Assembly (NCBI GenBank): GCA_963727895.1
Contig: CAVSHT010000019.1
Location: 1 to 22,059 of the forward strand
DNA length: 22,059 nt
Direction of reading: 5' to 3'
Origin: an uncultured Methanosarcinaceae archaeon
Lineage (GTDB): Archaea; Halobacteriota; Methanosarcinia; Methanosarcinales; Methanosarcinaceae
How positions within the stretch are numbered: position 1 is the first letter of the stretch; each line of letters starts with the position of its first letter. Both the position numbers and the translations under genes were made by a program. Below, one piece after another: positions 1 through 15,141 of the stretch. The notes under the pieces are model-generated. The model was not told the DNA's origin. It did not search any database and worked only from the letters and a program-made list of their open reading frames with translations.

Positions 1-229
1 ATTAGCATTCATACTTATTAATATTTTTGCTAGAAGTGACTGCAAAAAAAGATCCTATAATAAAAAGAATCTCAAAAAATTGAAATAAAAACAACATCAA
101 AAGATTGTATTAAAAATATACAAAAAGAACTAAAAACATCAAACATGGAAATAATTTACAAAAAATATATAGAGTGTTATATATTTAGAATAAAAGTTCA
201 AGAGAACTTTTGGGTTATCTAAACGCTTA

Positions 230-1282
230 TTAACATGCCTCTGTAAACTCAAAGATAATAAGATTTGAGATATTTCTAACTTCAAACATTTTACCTGCTG
301 CTCGTAATACCTTTGAGAAAAGTTCAACTAATTTAAAAACTGCTTTTTCATCGGAAAATTGGTGTCTCATTTTCACATATATTTTTCCACCCTCACTGGT
401 CATTTCAATATCATTCACTAGCTGGGTAACTAAAATAATTTTTTTACAGACAATAAATAGTTCAGAGAGAGAAATCTCCTTGATAGGTTTACCTAGAGAG
501 GCTTCAAAAAATCCTGTTATATCCGGCACTTCACCTGAGAGAAACACTTCAAATACGCTTCTATTAAGGTTTATTATCTCATATCTATGCGCGATGTATT
601 TTTCCACAAGAGTAGTCCAGAAATCGGGTTTACTTTTGATTTCTTTAAATGTATAATCTAAGATCCCAAAGTTTTTCCGAACTCCGGGAGGTATTTCAGT
701 ATCAGAGTTGTACTCTTTAAGAAAGATTAGGATAGAGTTGGACTTGCGATGGACAAAAGAGACATCAAAATTCAGGTAGCGACCAAGAAAAATTGAGAGT
801 TCTTCAGCAAGAAACGCTCTTAAACTGGGATCTCCATGTTCAAGCACTATTACCTCAGTCTTGTCTTCTCCCCAACTGGTGATAGAAGCTTTAATTTCCC
901 ACCCCTGGTTTCTGCTGCGCTTATTCAGGTATTCCAAAAGGTCAGAAATGTTTTTTATTTGATAAGGATTAAAAAGTTCACTTACAAGTTCATCAGTAAC
1001 AAGAATGCCATCCGTATTTTCGACAAACCATCTGAAGGAAAGCTGACTTATCAGTATACATTCTCCACTTTCAATCAGATTGTTTCGTACTTCTGGATAC
1101 TTTGAAGAACCTTCTGTGAGATATTCTAGTGCCTCCTCTACAGACTCATGTCCTTCAAGAGCTGCATTTGCAAGTTCTATCGCATCTCTGATTGCAGCAC
1201 TTAAATTGCCATTGTTTTTGTCCAAGAAGGGTTGAAGTTTTTCAAGGTGCGTATCTTCCATAGAAACATTTTTACGAACCAA
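230..1282 (-). CDS. Uncharacterised protein, paralog A: N-terminal RHH-like DNA-binding module plus two alpha/beta (possibly V4R-like) domains
   Basis: Long ORF (track start 1330). Preferred start is TTG at 1282, preceded by SD-like AGGTGG. The N-terminus RKNVS..HLEKL..NGNLSAAIRDAI fits the RHH strand-helix-helix pattern. Colinear with the 1410-2519 protein over its whole length. Coding status is confident; the domain call is inference. Confidence 0.8.
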   Translation of the reverse strand: MVRKNVSMEDTHLEKLQPFLDKNNGNLSAAIRDAIELANAALEGHESVEEALEYLTEGSSKYPEVRNNLIESGECILISQLSFRWFVENTDGILVTDELVSELFNPYQIKNISDLLEYLNKRSRNQGWEIKASITSWGEDKTEVIVLEHGDPSLRAFLAEELSIFLGRYLNFDVSFVHRKSNSILIFLKEYNSDTEIPPGVRKNFGILDYTFKEIKSKPDFWTTLVEKYIAHRYEIINLNRSVFEVFLSGEVPDITGFFEASLGKPIKEISLSELFIVCKKIILVTQLVNDIEMTSEGGKIYVKMRHQFSDEKAVFKLVELFSKVLRAAGKMFEVRNISNLIIFEFTEAC

Positions 1283-1377
1283 AAATCGTCCCCACCTTTC
1301 AATAGATTTTATTTTTGAAAACAACCTCAAAATAAAAAATGTGCGGTCGAGCTTAAAGAGTATGTAGATATTTAGTA

Positions 1378-1397
1378 GATGAACAGTTATATATAAA
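1378..1397 (-). promoter_or_regulatory. TATA box plus conserved downstream motif for paralog A
   Basis: Minus strand TTTATATATAACTGTTCATC: canonical archaeal TTTATATA box with an A-rich BRE-like upstream flank. 17/20 identical to 2634-2653. Confidence 0.65.
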
Positions 1398-1409
1398 TTA
1401 TTATTTTAA

Positions 1410-2519
1410 TCAAAAGCTCTTTTCAGAATAAATTTTGTTGGATATTCCATTTGGGACACCAGTAGAAAAATCAAAAATTAAAAGTTCCGATACCACACTC
1501 AACGTGAAATTATGCCAACCAGCTTCAAATACACTGGAGAAAAGCTGTATCATTTTTGCAATCAGTTTTTCATCAGAATAATCATGCCTGATTTTCATTT
1601 TTTCTTTTCCCCTTTCAGTACAGATTTCCACGTCATTAACGAGTTGAGATGTCATTAGAAAACGCTTAAAAAGTCGAAGTAATTCACAAAGTGGAATTTC
1701 ACGTAAAGACCGGCCAGCTTTAAGTTCAAAATATTTTTTGACATCTGGAAACTCACCTGCAACCAGAGCTTTAAAAAGATCCTTATCCAGATTAACTCTC
1801 CTGTAATTGAATCTTTGATAAAGTTCAATGAGTTCAACCCAGAATTCAGGTTTTTTCTCAATTTCTCTGTAAAGAAAATCTCTTGAGCCAAAATATTTCC
1901 TGATTCCAGGAGCTACTTCCTCTGGATCAATCCTGAAAAAATCTATCAGGTAGATAGTAATTGAATTGTACTTCCTATGCAATGCTACTACATCCAAGCT
2001 CATCCAGCGTGAAAGAAAAATACAGACTACCTTTGCAAGAAACTCACGAAAATCTCGGTATCCGCCAGTAAACTCCATGATAGTGAAGTCGTTTTCCTGC
2101 CCTTCTTTTCGTGGGCCAGAAACCATAATTTTCCAGCCCATTTTCTTACTGCTGGAATTAAGGTGCTCTTCCAATTCAGAAAATGTGGTAATAATGTAAG
2201 GATTAATCATTCCATGAACAATATCTTCGTCAATAAGTCTGCCAGCACAACTTTTTAAAAGCCATTTCATCACTTGCGGGTTCATTTTAACGGATTCTTC
2301 GCTCATAAAAAGCTCTTTTGTCTCTGAAAAATTTTTCTCATATTGTAGTTTCTTCGTAATTTCTTCAGGACTTCCACGATTTTCAAATTCAGAGCTAGCA
2401 AAATCAATAATTTCCCTTATTGCTGCACTTAAATTTCCGTTATGCTTTATCAGAAAAGGCTGAAGTTTCTGAAGGTGAGTCTCATCAAGAGATACGTTTT
2501 TTCGAATCAACACGATCAT
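1410..2519 (-). CDS. Uncharacterised protein, paralog B: N-terminal RHH-like module plus two alpha/beta domains
   Basis: 370-codon ORF; start is ATG 2519 or TTG 2510 (the latter is equivalent to the paralog A start). Shares RKNVS, KLQPFL, NGNLSAAIR, NPY, GW, HRK.NSI, PG.RK.FG, KP.FW, QLVND.E and RH..SDEK with paralog A. Confidence 0.8.
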   Translation of the reverse strand: MIVLIRKNVSLDETHLQKLQPFLIKHNGNLSAAIREIIDFASSEFENRGSPEEITKKLQYEKNFSETKELFMSEESVKMNPQVMKWLLKSCAGRLIDEDIVHGMINPYIITTFSELEEHLNSSSKKMGWKIMVSGPRKEGQENDFTIMEFTGGYRDFREFLAKVVCIFLSRWMSLDVVALHRKYNSITIYLIDFFRIDPEEVAPGIRKYFGSRDFLYREIEKKPEFWVELIELYQRFNYRRVNLDKDLFKALVAGEFPDVKKYFELKAGRSLREIPLCELLRLFKRFLMTSQLVNDVEICTERGKEKMKIRHDYSDEKLIAKMIQLFSSVFEAGWHNFTLSVVSELLIFDFSTGVPNGISNKIYSEKSF

Positions 2520-2633
2520 CAATCATTTTTTTTAAGTTTAATTCGCTAAAGTAAGAGATTTCAAACCTGTCACATTTAAACACAAAAATCTCTCTGGGAA
2601 TTAACACACACTAAATAGATTAAATATATTCTC

Positions 2634-2653
2634 GATTTACAGTTATGTATAAA
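2634..2653 (-). promoter_or_regulatory. TATA-like box plus conserved downstream motif for paralog B
   Basis: Minus strand TTTATACATAACTGTAAATC, 17/20 identical to 1378-1397 and about 120 bp upstream of the start codon. Confidence 0.55.
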
Positions 2654-2871: not shown

Positions 2872-3354
2872 ATGAATTGTGACACCGAAAGACTTGCCAG
2901 GGTCCGTATGATCGCGGATTACCAGTTTGGAAAAGGAATAGGAAAAGAACTTTTTCCTGACGGCTCAACTTTTCAGTTATCTAGGACAAAAAGGGTAAGG
3001 CAAATTCTCCACTCAGGAAAACGTATAGCTACAGCGAGAGCAAAGGATGGTTTTTTTACCCTCAGTATTGAGGGAGCTTCTGTAGTCCATAACCTATTAC
3101 CGGAAAAAAAACTCAGAGTTGTTGTATCAGATGAAGCTGCTCCTTTCGTGGAAAAAGGTAAAACCGCTTTTATAAAACATGTAGTTGAAATTGATCCTGA
3201 ACTGAGAGCTGGAGAGGAAGTGCTCATAACGGACAAAGCTGACAGACTGCTTGCAACTGGGCAATTGCTTCTGTCTCCTGTAGAGATCCTTGCCTTTGAC
3301 AGTGGCGCAGCTGTGGATGTAAGAGTAGGAATTGCCTCGAAAAAAGAAAAATAA
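2872..3354 (+). CDS. PUA-domain protein, likely the stand-alone C-terminal (C2+PUA) subunit of split archaeosine tRNA-guanine transglycosylase
   Basis: IADYQFG.G..LF and R..DG.FTLSIEGA resemble the ArcTGT C2 domain. APFV.KGK..F.KHV...DP.LRAGEEVL..D..D.LLATG...L is a PUA domain. TTTAAG at 2843-2848 with no SD suggests a leaderless mRNA. Confidence 0.8.
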   Translation: MNCDTERLARVRMIADYQFGKGIGKELFPDGSTFQLSRTKRVRQILHSGKRIATARAKDGFFTLSIEGASVVHNLLPEKKLRVVVSDEAAPFVEKGKTAFIKHVVEIDPELRAGEEVLITDKADRLLATGQLLLSPVEILAFDSGAAVDVRVGIASKKEK

Positions 3355-3652: not shown

Positions 3653-4774
3653 GTGAACATTATTTCAGAGCCAGAACAGATCTTAAAAAACTTCCTGGTT
3701 CCAGATAACACCAGAATAGAAGCAAAGAGAATTACAGTTGAGGGAGACGTTATTGTCGGCGATCACTCTAATATTGAATACAGTATATTCGGCGATACTA
3801 TTATTATGGGAGAAGGGGTAACTGTCACTGGAGATATCAAGACAAGTTCTGATATCAGAGTAGACATGTGGTCAAAACTGGGGAGCCAGGTAACTGTCGG
3901 TAGAAATGCTTACCTGGGAGAGTTTGTAACCATTGATGGAAAACTGTTCGTAGAAGGAGACCTGGACGTAGGAAAAGAAGTTAAAATTCAAGGAGGATTT
4001 GAAGCTAAGGGATGGATAGTGGTAAGGAATCCGGTCCCTGTAATTATATTTTTGTATCTCTACATAAGAGAAATGATGCGTCTAGGTAAAGGCGAAGAAA
4101 TTGAAAAAGCTGTAGAAGAACTATTCGACGATTCTGATGATATCCCTGGCTTTGAAGAAAAAGAATCTGTTGAAAATATATTAATTATACCTGCAGGTAC
4201 AAAAATATCCCCTGAAGCTATTGAAATCCCGGGAGAATCATTTATTGGGAACGGTTGCCTCTTGATAGGAAACCTTCGGGCACAAAGTGTCGAGACAGGA
4301 AAAAAACTGACACTCAAGGGAAGCATTTACTCAGAGAGTAAAATAGATATTGGAGAAAATTGCACTGTCTACGGCAATCTATATTCAAAGGGACCAGTAA
4401 AGATTGGAAATAACAGCCAGGTTTTTGGGGGAATAAAAGCCGCTTCAGTCTTACTGCACGAAAACGCAAGAGTAGAAGGTACGATAAAAGCACCTTCGGG
4501 AGTATCTTTCTTACGAGATGCTGCAGAAAAACCTGTTTTTGCAGAAGTCAACGCATTAGGGAAAGCAATAATTAAAGAAACTAAAAAGTTGCCCGAAAAT
4601 GTAATTCAGAGTGAATCCATAAAAACCCTGAATATTGTGGAAGTAAATTCACAAATCAAGCCGAATGCGAAAACCAAGAATATTTTTGTGCCTGGTAGAA
4701 AAAGAAAAACTGCCAGAACCCGGGCCCTGGAAAGAACTAGACGCTTTACAGGAACCAGGACTTACAGGAAGTAA
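3653..4774 (+). CDS. COG4801-like double beta-helix protein (polymer-forming cytoskeletal/bactofilin-like)
   Basis: Two runs of ~17-residue repeats (I.V.GDV.VG....I...I) are separated by a hydrophobic helix (PVPVIIFLYLYI) and an acidic linker, followed by an Arg/Lys-rich tail. The GTG start is uncertain. Confidence 0.7.
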   Translation: MNIISEPEQILKNFLVPDNTRIEAKRITVEGDVIVGDHSNIEYSIFGDTIIMGEGVTVTGDIKTSSDIRVDMWSKLGSQVTVGRNAYLGEFVTIDGKLFVEGDLDVGKEVKIQGGFEAKGWIVVRNPVPVIIFLYLYIREMMRLGKGEEIEKAVEELFDDSDDIPGFEEKESVENILIIPAGTKISPEAIEIPGESFIGNGCLLIGNLRAQSVETGKKLTLKGSIYSESKIDIGENCTVYGNLYSKGPVKIGNNSQVFGGIKAASVLLHENARVEGTIKAPSGVSFLRDAAEKPVFAEVNALGKAIIKETKKLPENVIQSESIKTLNIVEVNSQIKPNAKTKNIFVPGRKRKTARTRALERTRRFTGTRTYRK

Positions 4775-4947
4775 CACAAGACTGAAAAATAATCCAGAAT
4801 CATTTTTCGATCAATAGATTATGCCCCTGACATTATGAAAGTTCAGAATTTTCCTTTTAGAACCTTCTTTGGAATTTTTCATAAAGACAATGCTATCTGT
4901 ATGAAGTATAGCTAATCCTGCAGAGAAAGATTTGCAGAAAAATTTAT

Positions 4948-5688
4948 GGCATTGGTACACAAAAATAGATACATATGCTTATAACATATATTTCTTCATT
5001 AACTGCCCCAGATGCAATAGTTCCAGTCACAAAAAGAACGGTATAGTTGGCGGGCGTCAACGGTACAAATGCTCTGATTGTGGCTATAACTATACAGTAG
5101 AGCTAAAATCAACTGCTTTTTCCGCTTCTGTAAAAAGACAGGCTTTACAACTCTATCTTGAAGGATTGGGCTTTCGCTCAATAGGAAGAGTTTTAGGGGT
5201 AAGTCATGTTTCTGTCCAAAAATGGATACAGAAATTTGGTCAGGAGTTATAGGACCTAAAAAGTGAAAATGAGATATCTATTGTTGAAATGGATGAGATG
5301 CACACGTACATCGGTAACAAAAAAAATATTGCTGGATCTGGATTGCTGTTGATAGAGTTGGGAAAAAGTTTATCAACTGCTCTTTTGGCATCAGAGGAAC
5401 GGAAACTGGAAAACTACTCTGGGAAAAATTGAAGAAAAAAAGAGATTGGAGAAGTGATGACAGATCACTGGAGAGCATATGCAGAGTTTTTTCCAGAAAA
5501 GATCCATACTCAATCAAAAGCAAAAACGTATACTGTTGAAGGATATAACAGCATATTGAGGCATTTCCTGGCAAGATTGAGAAGAAAGACAAAGTGTTAT
5601 ACGAAGAGTCTTGAAATGCTAAAGTACTCGGTTATTCTATTGATGAAATACAGAAATAAAGAGTTAACTATGTTTAGTTAACCACACC
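4948..5688 (+). mobile_element. IS1-family insertion sequence, copy 1 (741 bp)
   Basis: 8-bp target duplication AAATTTAT at 4940-4947 and 5689-5696. Imperfect terminal IRs GGCATTGGTACACAAAAATAG / GGTGTGGTTAACTAAACATAG (13/21). Contains an InsA/InsB-type transposase. Confidence 0.92.
4998..5681 (+). pseudogene. IS1-family transposase with A8 frameshift site, in-frame TAG and ATT in place of ATG
   Basis: Zn ribbon CPRC..KNG...GRQRYKC..CG and HTH EGLGFRSIGRVLGVSHVSV. TAG at 5250-5252, then EMDEMH. A8 run at 5319-5326, after which the -1 frame reads YCWIWIAVDR...MTDHW...TVEGYNS.LRHFLARL.RKTKCY (DDE core) to TAA at 5679-5681. Confidence 0.85.
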
Positions 5689-13298: not shown

Positions 13299-14036
13299 AT
13301 GTTCAAGGCAGCAATTAATGCAGAGCTTCTGAAAGATTCATTTGCCGCACTGGCTGTAATTGTAGATGAGGTCAGACTCAAGATAAAACCGGAAGGTATT
13401 TCGGTAAAAGCAGTTGATCCTGCCAATGTTGCGATGGGAATTTTTGAGCTTGGGTCATCCGCTTTTGATGAATATAGTGCTGATGAATGTGAGATTGGAG
13501 TTGACCTGACAAAAATTATGGACCTGTTGGGGATTGCGGACAAGACTAACACAGTTCAGCTGGAACTTGAAGAAGAGAATCATAAACTCTTGATTGACGT
13601 TGGAGGATTGTCCTATACACTTTCTCTTCTTGATCCTTCCACAATTCGTGCAGAACCAAGAGTTCCCCAGCTCGAGCTGCCTGCAAAAGTTGTCCTAAAC
13701 GGTGCAGATCTTAGACGTGCTGTGAAAGCTGCAGAAAAAATAAGCGATCACATGCTCATGGGAGTTTCTGATGATACATTCTTTATGGAAGCAAAAGGCG
13801 ATACTGACAAAGTTCGCCTGGAAATGGGTAGAGATCAGCTGATTGATTTGAAATCAGGTGAAGCCTGTTCGCTTTTCTCCCTGGACTATTTAACCGATAT
13901 AGTCAAACCCACAAATAAGATTAATGAGGTTACACTCTCCCTTGGAAAAGATTTTCCAGTATTCATAGATTTTGAAATTGCAAACGGTGCAGGAAGGATT
14001 TCTTACCTCCTGGCTCCAAGAATTGAGTCGGACTAA
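13299..14036 (+). CDS. pcn: DNA polymerase sliding clamp PCNA
   Basis: 245 aa; AVDPANVAM, IGVDL, FSLDYL, LG.DFP and C-terminal YLLAPRIE. SD GGAGA. Confidence 0.97.
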   Translation: MFKAAINAELLKDSFAALAVIVDEVRLKIKPEGISVKAVDPANVAMGIFELGSSAFDEYSADECEIGVDLTKIMDLLGIADKTNTVQLELEEENHKLLIDVGGLSYTLSLLDPSTIRAEPRVPQLELPAKVVLNGADLRRAVKAAEKISDHMLMGVSDDTFFMEAKGDTDKVRLEMGRDQLIDLKSGEACSLFSLDYLTDIVKPTNKINEVTLSLGKDFPVFIDFEIANGAGRISYLLAPRIESD

Positions 14037-14040
14037 TCTT

Positions 14041-15141
14041 ATGCAGGCTGAAGAACTTGCATATTTCCCCTTTATTTCAGAAGCATCTATTTATGTTGAA
14101 AATCTGGGTATTTCCCTAGACAGTTTGCTTAATTCCCGAGCCTATCGGGCTGCAAGAGTAAGAGGAATAGAAAGAGTAAAAGAAGCTCTTGAAGGAGAAA
14201 TAAAAAAATCTCCAGTCTCTGGTGAAGTCCAGATTCTTTCAGAAATTCTTTCTTATCCTTTTGCTCGGATGCTGGTTGCCTGTATAGACGATCAGCTCTT
14301 TACCAGGCGCTATGCTCTGGCAGAAGCAAAAGCTGCCTATAATCAATTAAAAAACGAAACTCCATCTTTTTTGCTTAAATTCGGAGAGAATTTTGGAATA
14401 GCAACCGATTTTAGAGATTATTCTTTCAGCATGCATTTTACGTCTTATATCCACTTTTCAAATGCCCTGAAAGATCCTGCCTGGAAGCTGACAAACCGTC
14501 AGTTTCGGTCTGGAGAAGTAAAAATTACAAAAGAAGAATTTTCAAGGCTTCTTGAAGAAGCTGTCAGAGAACGTATTGAACAGTCGTTTCCAATTCCTGA
14601 AATCCCTTCTGAAGTTTCAAGTTTTTGTGCTCCCTATGTTGCCGAGATAAAAGACCAGTTTGAAATCCAGAAGAAAAAATTTGGAGCAACAGACTTTGGA
14701 ACAGTTGAGCCGGAACTTTTTCCTCCTTGCATATCCCATGCACTTGCAAACGTACAGGGTGGAATAAACCTTGCTCATTCTATGCGTTTTGCCATGACTT
14801 CTTTCCTGCTAAATGTGGGAATGTCAGTAGACGAAATTCTTAACCTTTTCAATATATCTCCTGATTTTAACGCAGAACTAACCCTTTATCAAATAGAACA
14901 TATTGCAGGAGCAACAGGAAATGTATACAAGCCTCCGGCATGTGATACAATGAGAACCTATGGTAATTGCATAGGAAAAGATAGATTGTGCGAGACGATC
15001 AGTCATCCTTTAGGATATTATGAGAAAAAAATATATCTAAAAAAGAAAGAAAGCGAAAAAGAGGCGGAAGAAAAAAGGAGAGAAAGTGAAAAAGATAGTG
15101 GAAAAGGAAAGGAGAAAAGGGACATATCTTTAAGAAAATAA
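14041..15141 (+). CDS. priL: DNA primase large (regulatory) subunit
   Basis: YPF.R, RRYA..EA, WKL.NR....G.V, FPPCI, H..RF...SFL..G, YQI.HI.G, Y.PP.C.T....G.C (Fe-S ligands) and HPL.YY. ATG 4 nt after the pcn stop. Confidence 0.93.
   Translation: MQAEELAYFPFISEASIYVENLGISLDSLLNSRAYRAARVRGIERVKEALEGEIKKSPVSGEVQILSEILSYPFARMLVACIDDQLFTRRYALAEAKAAYNQLKNETPSFLLKFGENFGIATDFRDYSFSMHFTSYIHFSNALKDPAWKLTNRQFRSGEVKITKEEFSRLLEEAVRERIEQSFPIPEIPSEVSSFCAPYVAEIKDQFEIQKKKFGATDFGTVEPELFPPCISHALANVQGGINLAHSMRFAMTSFLLNVGMSVDEILNLFNISPDFNAELTLYQIEHIAGATGNVYKPPACDTMRTYGNCIGKDRLCETISHPLGYYEKKIYLKKKESEKEAEEKRRESEKDSGKGKEKRDISLRK

Follow-up and report, generated by a model that had tools for sequence, protein, structure and literature searches.

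Near one end of a contig from an uncultured Methanosarcinaceae archaeon (GCA_963727895.1, contig CAVSHT010000019.1), two adjacent genes, here called A and B, are read from the minus strand across a spacer of 127 nucleotides (nt). The whole stretch analysed, 22,059 nt long, is referred to as the window, and the features of the locus are collected in Table 1. An earlier note, made from the sequence alone, had described A and B as co-oriented neighbours whose proteins align end to end, each with a DNA-binding head of the ribbon-helix-helix (RHH) type in front of two putative sensor domains. BLASTP bears out the relationship: along almost their entire length, the two proteins agree at 136 of 351 positions (39% identity, E 7e-88). 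The close match at the N-terminus could be reproduced from the translations: counted from (L)[VI]RKNVS, 25 of the first 32 residues are identical, including all of RKNVS and NGNLSAAIR, and the remainder, which had been put at roughly one-third by eye, comes to 111/319 (35%). By region, the heads are 61% identical, the linkers behind them 30%, and the two body domains, D1 and D2, 31% and 40%. Gene A probably starts at TTG 1282 rather than at 1330, since a GGTGG lies 9 nt upstream and orthologues of 350 amino acids (aa; P0072-P0079) begin at the same residue. Gene B may start at ATG 2519, as in the earlier note, or at TTG 2510, the start of its orthologues.

Table 1. Features of the A/B locus and its surroundings (window positions; domain assignments are predictions).
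Feature	Position	Strand	Description
Open reading frame (ORF) of gene A	230..1330	-	
ORF of gene B	1410..2522	-	
Gene A	230..1282	-	AF_0136-family protein (inferred), 350 aa; probable TTG start at 1282, stop 230-232; A group in tree
Gene B	1410..2519	-	Paralog of ~366-369 aa; stop 1410-1412; B group in tree
RHH-like head of A	1142..1282	-	Residues 1 to ~47; strand VRKNVSM, helix 1, GNLSAAIRD opening helix 2; by alignment to B head
RHH-like head of B	2382..2519	-	Residues 1 to ~47; from AlphaFold2 (AF2) model and structure searches
D1 of A (approximate)	701..1060	-	Placed via BLASTP alignment to B
D2 of A (approximate)	236..700	-	Placed via BLASTP alignment to B
D1 of B	1929..2291	-	Residues ~78-198; beta-alpha3-beta2-alpha-beta2 unit; AF2
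D2 of B	1458..1928	-	Residues ~199-355; three-helix linker, then beta-alpha3-beta2-alpha-beta2 unit; AF2
33-nt TATA-like element upstream of A	1365..1397	-	TTTATATATAACTGT...; repeat family D3
33-nt TATA-like element upstream of B (second copy)	2621..2653	-	Within a stretch that B orthologues lack
Promoter-like block of missing gene C	9..50	-	Conserved upstream of all C orthologues
Gene of TGT_C2 + PUA protein	2872..3354	+	Divergent; Pfam E 2.8e-30 and 1.7e-14

What had been taken for a tandem pair is rather the visible part of a larger arrangement, a conserved B-A-C array accompanied by a dispersed fourth paralog, D. The window starts at contig position 1, and its positions 1-260 align colinearly with the spacer between A and C in relatives (67.8% to L004 over 273 nt); the contig ends ~100 nt short of gene C. 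The assembly break lies inside this spacer (window 1-229), and the relatives L016-L020 and L035 continue with C and an uncharacterised gene of ~200 aa. Within the same spacer, window 59-108 contains a direct repeat of 25 nt in two tandem copies (AATAAAAAGAATCTC... and AATAAAAACAACATC..., 80% identical). Neither gene C nor the ~200-aa gene (P0233) was found in the source assembly, which is 84% complete, and no relative of P0233 turned up in Pfam, NCBIfam or the PDB. A third copy in the source genome, on contig C6, is an orthologue of D.

Across the family Methanosarcinaceae, 40 of 121 genomes have a match, including every genome of g1 (19/19), g2 (2/2), g3 (10/10) and g13 (6/6) and one each of g7 (1/3) and g14 (1/3). 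At least 13 genomes (8 of g1, i.e. Methanosarcina, and 5 of g13) carry three adjacent, co-oriented and intact copies plus a fourth elsewhere. The array reads: divergent PUA/TGT_C2 gene, B, A, C, then the ~200-aa gene. A maximum-likelihood tree of 40 rows, in which the two halves of the broken L035 copy were left out, resolves the four orthologue groups B, A, C and D, with A, B and C together (support 94/99) and apart from D (100/100). Seven Methanosarcina genomes have just two dispersed copies, C and D, and neither A nor B; there, the order is PUA gene, C and ~200-aa gene. In another genome (G023), a frameshift splits A into two frames (L035 5115-6174) while B and C are intact, and further broken copies of the A/B type are present in G098 (C3:53820-54942) and G092 (C90:19841-20104), both Methanosarcina. 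Broken copies in three Methanosarcina genomes suggest an ongoing loss of the younger duplicates.

The family as a whole is small. Among 5.8 billion proteins, 81 homologues of B were retrieved (97-26% identical to B); where organism names are given, these are Methanosarcina, Methanosarcinaceae or uncultured archaeon, and the named proteins are all hypothetical or uncharacterised. A profile search of 1.84 billion sequences returned 152 cluster representatives at E <= 1e-3, and the named family members come from Methanosarcina, other Methanosarcinales including Methanoperedens, Methanofastidiosia and metagenome-assembled genomes of unclassified Euryarchaeota. Precomputed labels place 78 of the 81 homologues in PF27313, which the ESM Atlas gives as AF_0136_C (Pfam 38.1); the nearest Atlas clusters have PF27313 in 94% of their members and bear the automatic name 'AF_0136 family C-terminal domain-containing protein'. 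From these labels and clusters, we infer that A and B belong to PF27313. The earlier note's view of an undescribed module is corrected to this extent: the family is catalogued, under a name that says nothing of function, although no characterisation of it was found. Literature searches returned no paper on the PF27313/AF_0136 family (text matches to AF0136 or AF_0136 were unrelated accession numbers), and searches on Methanosarcina RHH proteins, V4R and DNA affinity purification or chromatin immunoprecipitation sequencing (DAP-seq/ChIP-seq) returned nothing on the A/B family. Searched against PDB sequences by phmmer and by profile, B gave no match; with one alignment (A2), the only entry was ribosomal S8 at E 1.1.

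In the full-length AF2 model of B (62-sequence alignment; mean predicted local distance difference test score, pLDDT, 76.9), the head consists of a strand (residues 3-6) and two helices (14-26 and 31-47), i.e. a beta-alpha-alpha arrangement, and a model of the head alone (34 sequences, pLDDT 88.8) has an extended N-terminus followed by helices 13-25 and 30-48. Structural relatives were sought with VIA, an all-against-all structure search over 48,161 chains, of which the best 50 rows were considered. For the head, these best 50 are almost all RHH proteins (Z 6.0-3.4) whose alignments span 42-53 of 53 residues, among them Rv0298 (Z 6.0 over 50 residues), ArtA (5.6) and NikR (5.5) as well as TacA, CdbA, AmrZ, the RHH domain of PutA, ORF56, Arc, omega, ParG and FitA. 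The fold is named in three of the titles; the others we take to be RHH proteins.

Sequence profiles give fainter signals. The Pfam model RHH_1 matches 9 of 34 head-domain relatives at E <= 1, all sub-threshold (best E 5e-4), and the two with listed scores, P0208 and P0181, reach 17.6 and 16.8 bits, both below the 20.5-bit cut-off; on A and B themselves, RHH_1 has no match at E <= 1. A profile of the head brings NikR residues 1-40 into register, at E values that are not significant (0.6 and 0.73), and in the search against PDB sequences NikR at E 0.6 sat among eIF2B-delta matches of similar E. Two hallmarks of the RHH superfamily are nonetheless found in the head, namely a beta-alpha-alpha topology of ~45 residues and the resemblance to solved RHH domains. 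We therefore accept the head of A and B as RHH-like at the level of prediction, in agreement with what had been proposed from the sequence. A set of stand-alone proteins of ~85-115 aa (P0188-P0232, alignment A3) has the head motif RKN[VI]S ... GN[LF]S.A[IM]R and, behind it, a short segment GD.[LI][VI]L.V; it may be a separate small RHH family.

Conservation among the paralogs was calculated without the rows of G001, G045 and G006, on 7 sequences of B, 6 of A, 9 of C and 8 of D. Between groups, identity is 47-66% in the head, 15-34% in the linker, 31-39% in D1 and 29-44% in D2; within groups, the linker reaches 46-81% and the other three regions 65-92%. Conservation is highest in the head; D1 and D2 are 65-81% identical within each group and differ by 60-70% from one group to another. 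The strand RKN[VI]S and the segment GNLSAA[IV]R[DE] recur without exception in the four groups, so that the predicted DNA-reading strand is common to the paralogs, as the earlier note had held for A and B. Such a pattern fits a single putative DNA-reading surface combined with diverged bodies.

Two internal units of like layout had also been proposed for the body, and the AF2 model of B contains them. Unit 1 (residues 79-194) runs from a short strand (79-80) through three helices (82-91, 99-105 and 114-128), two strands (132-140 and 146-153) and a helix (156-174) to two final strands (176-184 and 187-194). Unit 2 (243-351) repeats all nine elements in matching order (9/9): strand 243-246, helices 247-254, 262-269 and 278-292, strands 297-301 and 308-312, helix 318-334, strands 340-344 and 347-351. 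A three-helix segment (205-237) separates the units, and the linker between head and unit 1 is poorly conserved and modelled with low confidence. Support from sequence is weak: comparing D1 with D2, hhalign returned a probability of 0.3% with a Methanosarcina-only alignment and of 8-9% with 46-47 diverse members (E 0.004 local, 0.0009 global; 87-108 columns), in a register that agrees with the AF2 elements and with the example given in the earlier note. An internal duplication is therefore suggested, albeit not proven.

For the body, 10 of the best 50 rows of an unbiased VIA search are H-NOX, V4R, PoxR/DmpR or Bet3-type TRAPP proteins (H-NOX 1xbn Z 5.7, 6mx5 5.5 and 4u99 5.3; V4R 2oso 5.3; PoxR 5.6; DmpR 5.4; Bet3-type TRAPP subunits 7.5, 6.2, 5.9 and 5.1), and H-NOX/sGC (12) and Bet3/TRAPP (8) together make up 20 of 50 rows of a second-look list. 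D1 matched BcsD (Z 7.6), the sGC/H-NOX chain 8hbe_B (Z 6.5, 121 aligned) and V4R 2oso (Z 5.3, 113 aligned), and D2 matched Bet3/TRAPP (Z 7.5), Tt H-NOX 4it2_A (Z 6.9, 99 aligned), PoxR (5.6) and DmpR (5.4); the H-NOX fold thus appears for D1 as well as D2. According to PMC5847659, MetOD1, HNOB and V4R are related to one another, and according to PMC2614490, V4R is a small-molecule-binding domain homologous to a vesicle-transport component. Neither Pfam V4R (PF02830) nor HNOB matches A or B at E <= 1. D1 and D2 showed no ligand-binding motif, and a search of the ESM Atlas with D1 alone, confined to named clusters, gave no usable match. The family does have invariant polar and aromatic residues (W130, E220, W228, E266 and H313). 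Of the V4R/HNOB-like body that the earlier note had envisaged, what stands is that H-NOX, V4R and Bet3 proteins are the best recognisable structural relatives; a profile match or ligand motif to go with them is missing.

Additional clues come from relatives with other domain compositions. Eleven long-form relatives of 464-510 aa were scanned, and 9/11 add a C-terminal third domain with three invariant cysteines that weakly resembles V4R (E 0.0036) and MetOD1 (E 0.0037) and matches a TRAPPC3/Bet3 profile (E 0.0021); JGI names one cluster of this domain 'predicted hydrocarbon binding protein'. In the other two (P0115 and P0124), the C-terminus is a receiver domain (E 2e-28 and 2e-10); both are annotated at source as response regulators. 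A shorter form of ~240 aa, which matches head and D1 only, occurs in 19 of 38 genomes of another archaeal family. Another protein, P0082, gave a first impression of being a V4R carrier, which Pfam did not confirm. The cysteine-domain, receiver and head-plus-D1 variants indicate that the modules are separable and have been placed in signalling contexts, and the fusions to receiver domains and to a cysteine-bearing V4R/Bet3-like domain strengthen the case for a regulatory role.

We consider it probable that A and B are dimeric RHH one-component regulators in which two H-NOX/V4R/Bet3-like domains tune the binding to DNA, a reading that holds largely at the level of prediction. By analogy with all solved RHH proteins, the head would pair with a second head to form a two-stranded beta-ribbon that reads the major groove of DNA, and, going by the putative alignment to NikR, the invariant strand RKN[VI]S would turn its R, N and S towards the bases. 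D1 and D2 would most likely bind a small molecule, mediate oligomerisation or do both, thereby tuning DNA binding. In Methanosarcina, the family has expanded into four orthologue groups, the B-A-C array beside the divergent PUA-domain gene and the dispersed paralog D. As the reading strand is the same and the bodies are 60-70% different, the four groups probably recognise related operators and respond to different inputs.

A number of results weigh against this reading. Foldseek against the PDB, a check that the earlier note had suggested for the head, did put RHH proteins on top (MatP, NikR, SvtR, NikA, ParD2 and TacA2, with 28-33% identity to NikR over 42 columns at a root-mean-square deviation of 2.4-2.8), but these top rows have non-significant E values above 1 and the 53-residue query has no match at E <= 1e-3; the whole model of B likewise returned nothing at E <= 1e-3. 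The Pfam and NCBIfam libraries that were searched, which did not include PF27313, have no model at threshold on A or B. The body's H-NOX, V4R and Bet3 matches all have Z below 8, a range in which VIA warns of a mere common arrangement, and scores at least as high were reached by BcsD (8 rows, Z up to 7.6), by circular permutants of S6 (D2, Z 8.8) and by designed proteins. When D1 or D2 was compared by hhalign with the V4R-like extension of the long-form relatives, nothing was found (E 0.14-0.84). The absence of the V4R cysteines, which the earlier note had pointed out, holds for the family: none of the cysteine columns is conserved throughout the 62 sequences, the best reaching 74%. H-NOX proteins carry the heme motif Y-x-S-x-R, which occurs in 0/62 sequences. 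No common operator is visible either, as the upstream regions of the four paralog groups have no 7- or 8-mer in common; their common 6-mers are A/T-rich alone (9 observed vs 0.6 in shuffles).

Metatranscriptome contigs of at least 95% identity, from four runs in three studies, cover A at 265-1217 and span the 5′ part of B (2171-2677) with a leader of ~160 nt, which hints that both genes are expressed; RNA contigs, though, are no proof of transcription. The stretch 1218-2170, including parts of B, is without such cover, to which we attach no weight.

A more far-reaching extension would turn the four paralogs of Methanosarcina (B, A, C and D) into an RHH network, in which the same strand reads overlapping operators, homo- or mixed oligomers compete or cooperate there, and each paralog senses a different ligand through a cysteine-free tandem pair of H-NOX/V4R-like domains not described before. 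If true, methanogens and their relatives would have a combinatorial one-component system of their own; at present, we regard it as doubtful.

Closer to what the earlier note had in mind is a model confined to A and B, in which A:B heterodimers and homodimers act on one common operator and integrate two signals. The invariance of RKN[VI]S and GNLSAA[IV]R in all four groups, the 25/32 identity of the heads and the adjacent, co-oriented genes speak in its favour, as does a 33-nt element located 115-135 nt upstream of both genes. The two copies of this element agree at 25 of 33 positions, compared with 20.6 +/- 1.0 in shuffles (0/200 shuffles reach 25), and the exact 15-mer TTTATAYATAACTGT occurs solely at these two sites in the 3.67-Mb assembly, making the element unique to them; with one mismatch allowed, the 15-mer is not enriched genome-wide (8 vs 5 for a control). 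On the other hand, each gene has its own TATA-like element, with a spacer of 127 nt in between, and the genome record speaks against the model: A is frameshifted in G023 next to intact B and C, broken copies recur in G098 and G092, and seven Methanosarcina genomes make do with C and D. In other words, B can be kept where A is lost, and the family functions in genomes that have neither. We thus judge the integration of two signals at one operator unlikely, and an obligate A:B heterodimer is unlikely for the same two reasons, the A pseudogene of G023 beside an intact B and the seven genomes devoid of both. Scans for sigma-70 promoters and terminators are uninformative for an archaeon. Separately, a conserved block (AAATAGAAAGATTTAATATTnGGTAGCACTTACCA) with the palindrome GGTA-N5-TACC lies ~190 nt upstream of the D genes (L021-L029) and is a candidate operator.

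Another possibility is that the RHH head binds DNA but that D1 and D2 oligomerise without sensing anything, making A and B architectural or cooperative repressors; a signal would then enter through the extra V4R-like or receiver domain that A and B lack. Indeed, the top matches of D1 are the oligomer-forming BcsD, those of D2 are designed beta-sheet heterodimer interfaces and Bet3 subunits, which work by heterodimerisation, and relatives carry a dedicated V4R-like or receiver (REC) domain behind D2, with no conserved ligand motif in D1 or D2 themselves. Yet the sensor domains of H-NOX, V4R and PoxR/DmpR recur for both D1 and D2, the conservation of D1 and D2 within groups and their divergence between groups are as expected for diverged specificities, and the five invariant residues (W130, E220, W228, E266 and H313) could line a pocket. 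Bodies devoted to oligomerisation therefore appear improbable to us. Least credible of all is a non-transcriptional role, e.g. linked to the tRNA-modification-type PUA/TGT_C2 neighbour, with the head as a protein-protein or RNA-binding module: the divergent arrangement with that gene is conserved, no family model reaches threshold and no operator was found, but the head's structural matches are DNA-binding RHH proteins throughout, the strand has invariant basic and polar residues, and receiver-domain fusions fit a transcription output.

A 168-aa ORF occupies the position of the PUA gene at 6 of the 7 other loci compared, the L016 copy being the one tested against Pfam. On the far side, a bactofilin/hexapeptide-repeat protein (window 3653-4774) adjoins the PUA gene and keeps this position in relatives. 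Nearly identical ORFs of IS1-type, InsA-like transposases with zinc ribbon and helix-turn-helix are found near A/B (window 4932-5252) and near D on contig C6 (L003 3616-4050), and repeated copies of such insertion sequences may explain the contig breaks. The genes for PCNA and the large subunit of primase lie side by side at window 13299-15141, and the window further encodes aminotransferases, a CDP-alcohol phosphatidyltransferase, phosphatidylserine decarboxylase, a CobB/CobQ-type amidotransferase, a MoaA-like radical SAM protein and SurE. This is an ordinary chromosomal context. A type II toxin-antitoxin or other defence system was considered and rejected, as A, B and the two neighbours have no PADLOC match and the neighbours are housekeeping genes in conserved synteny.

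To our knowledge, the majority of the transcription factors predicted in methanogens have not been characterised, and apart from NikR, large sensor bodies are seldom found on RHH regulators. If the reading of A and B as dimeric one-component regulators is true, the coupling of an RHH head to two H-NOX/V4R-type domains would constitute a new one-component architecture, confined in our searches to Methanosarcinales, Methanoperedens and some other archaeal lineages. Its natural variants—RHH plus D1, or with an added V4R-like or receiver domain—would help to dissect the modules. The four paralogs with one reading strand would moreover allow tests of how tandem duplication diversifies regulation, with recent decay of some of the copies.

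Among known systems, NikR is similar in placing an N-terminal RHH head before a regulatory alpha/beta domain within one polypeptide. Yet NikR has a single ACT-like metal-binding domain, whereas the predicted body of A and B consists of two H-NOX/V4R/Bet3-like units of ~115 aa plus linkers, and the A/B family has no conserved metal-binding His/Cys cluster. The V4R/H-NOX/Bet3 superfamily (MJ_1460 2oso, PoxR/DmpR, MetOD1) resembles both body domains over most of their length (Z 5.3-7.5, 99-123 aligned), but A and B are without the three V4R cysteines, the Y-x-S-x-R motif and a Pfam V4R or HNOB match. MsvR, one of the archaeal V4R-containing regulators with another kind of DNA-binding head, joins a helix-turn-helix head to a cysteine-bearing V4R domain, whereas the head of A and B is RHH-like and their body domains are duplicated and cysteine-free. 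The plan of a DNA-binding head with a V4R-type sensing domain in a methanogen is nevertheless one that A and B would have in common with MsvR, the subject of PMC3729527. Finally, Table 3 in PMC5847659 lists MetOD5, a ~300-aa domain of the MetOD5-REC response regulators of Methanoregula, which, by description only, resembles the arrangement in P0115 and P0124—~350 aa of the A/B family followed by REC—in size and in its place before the receiver.

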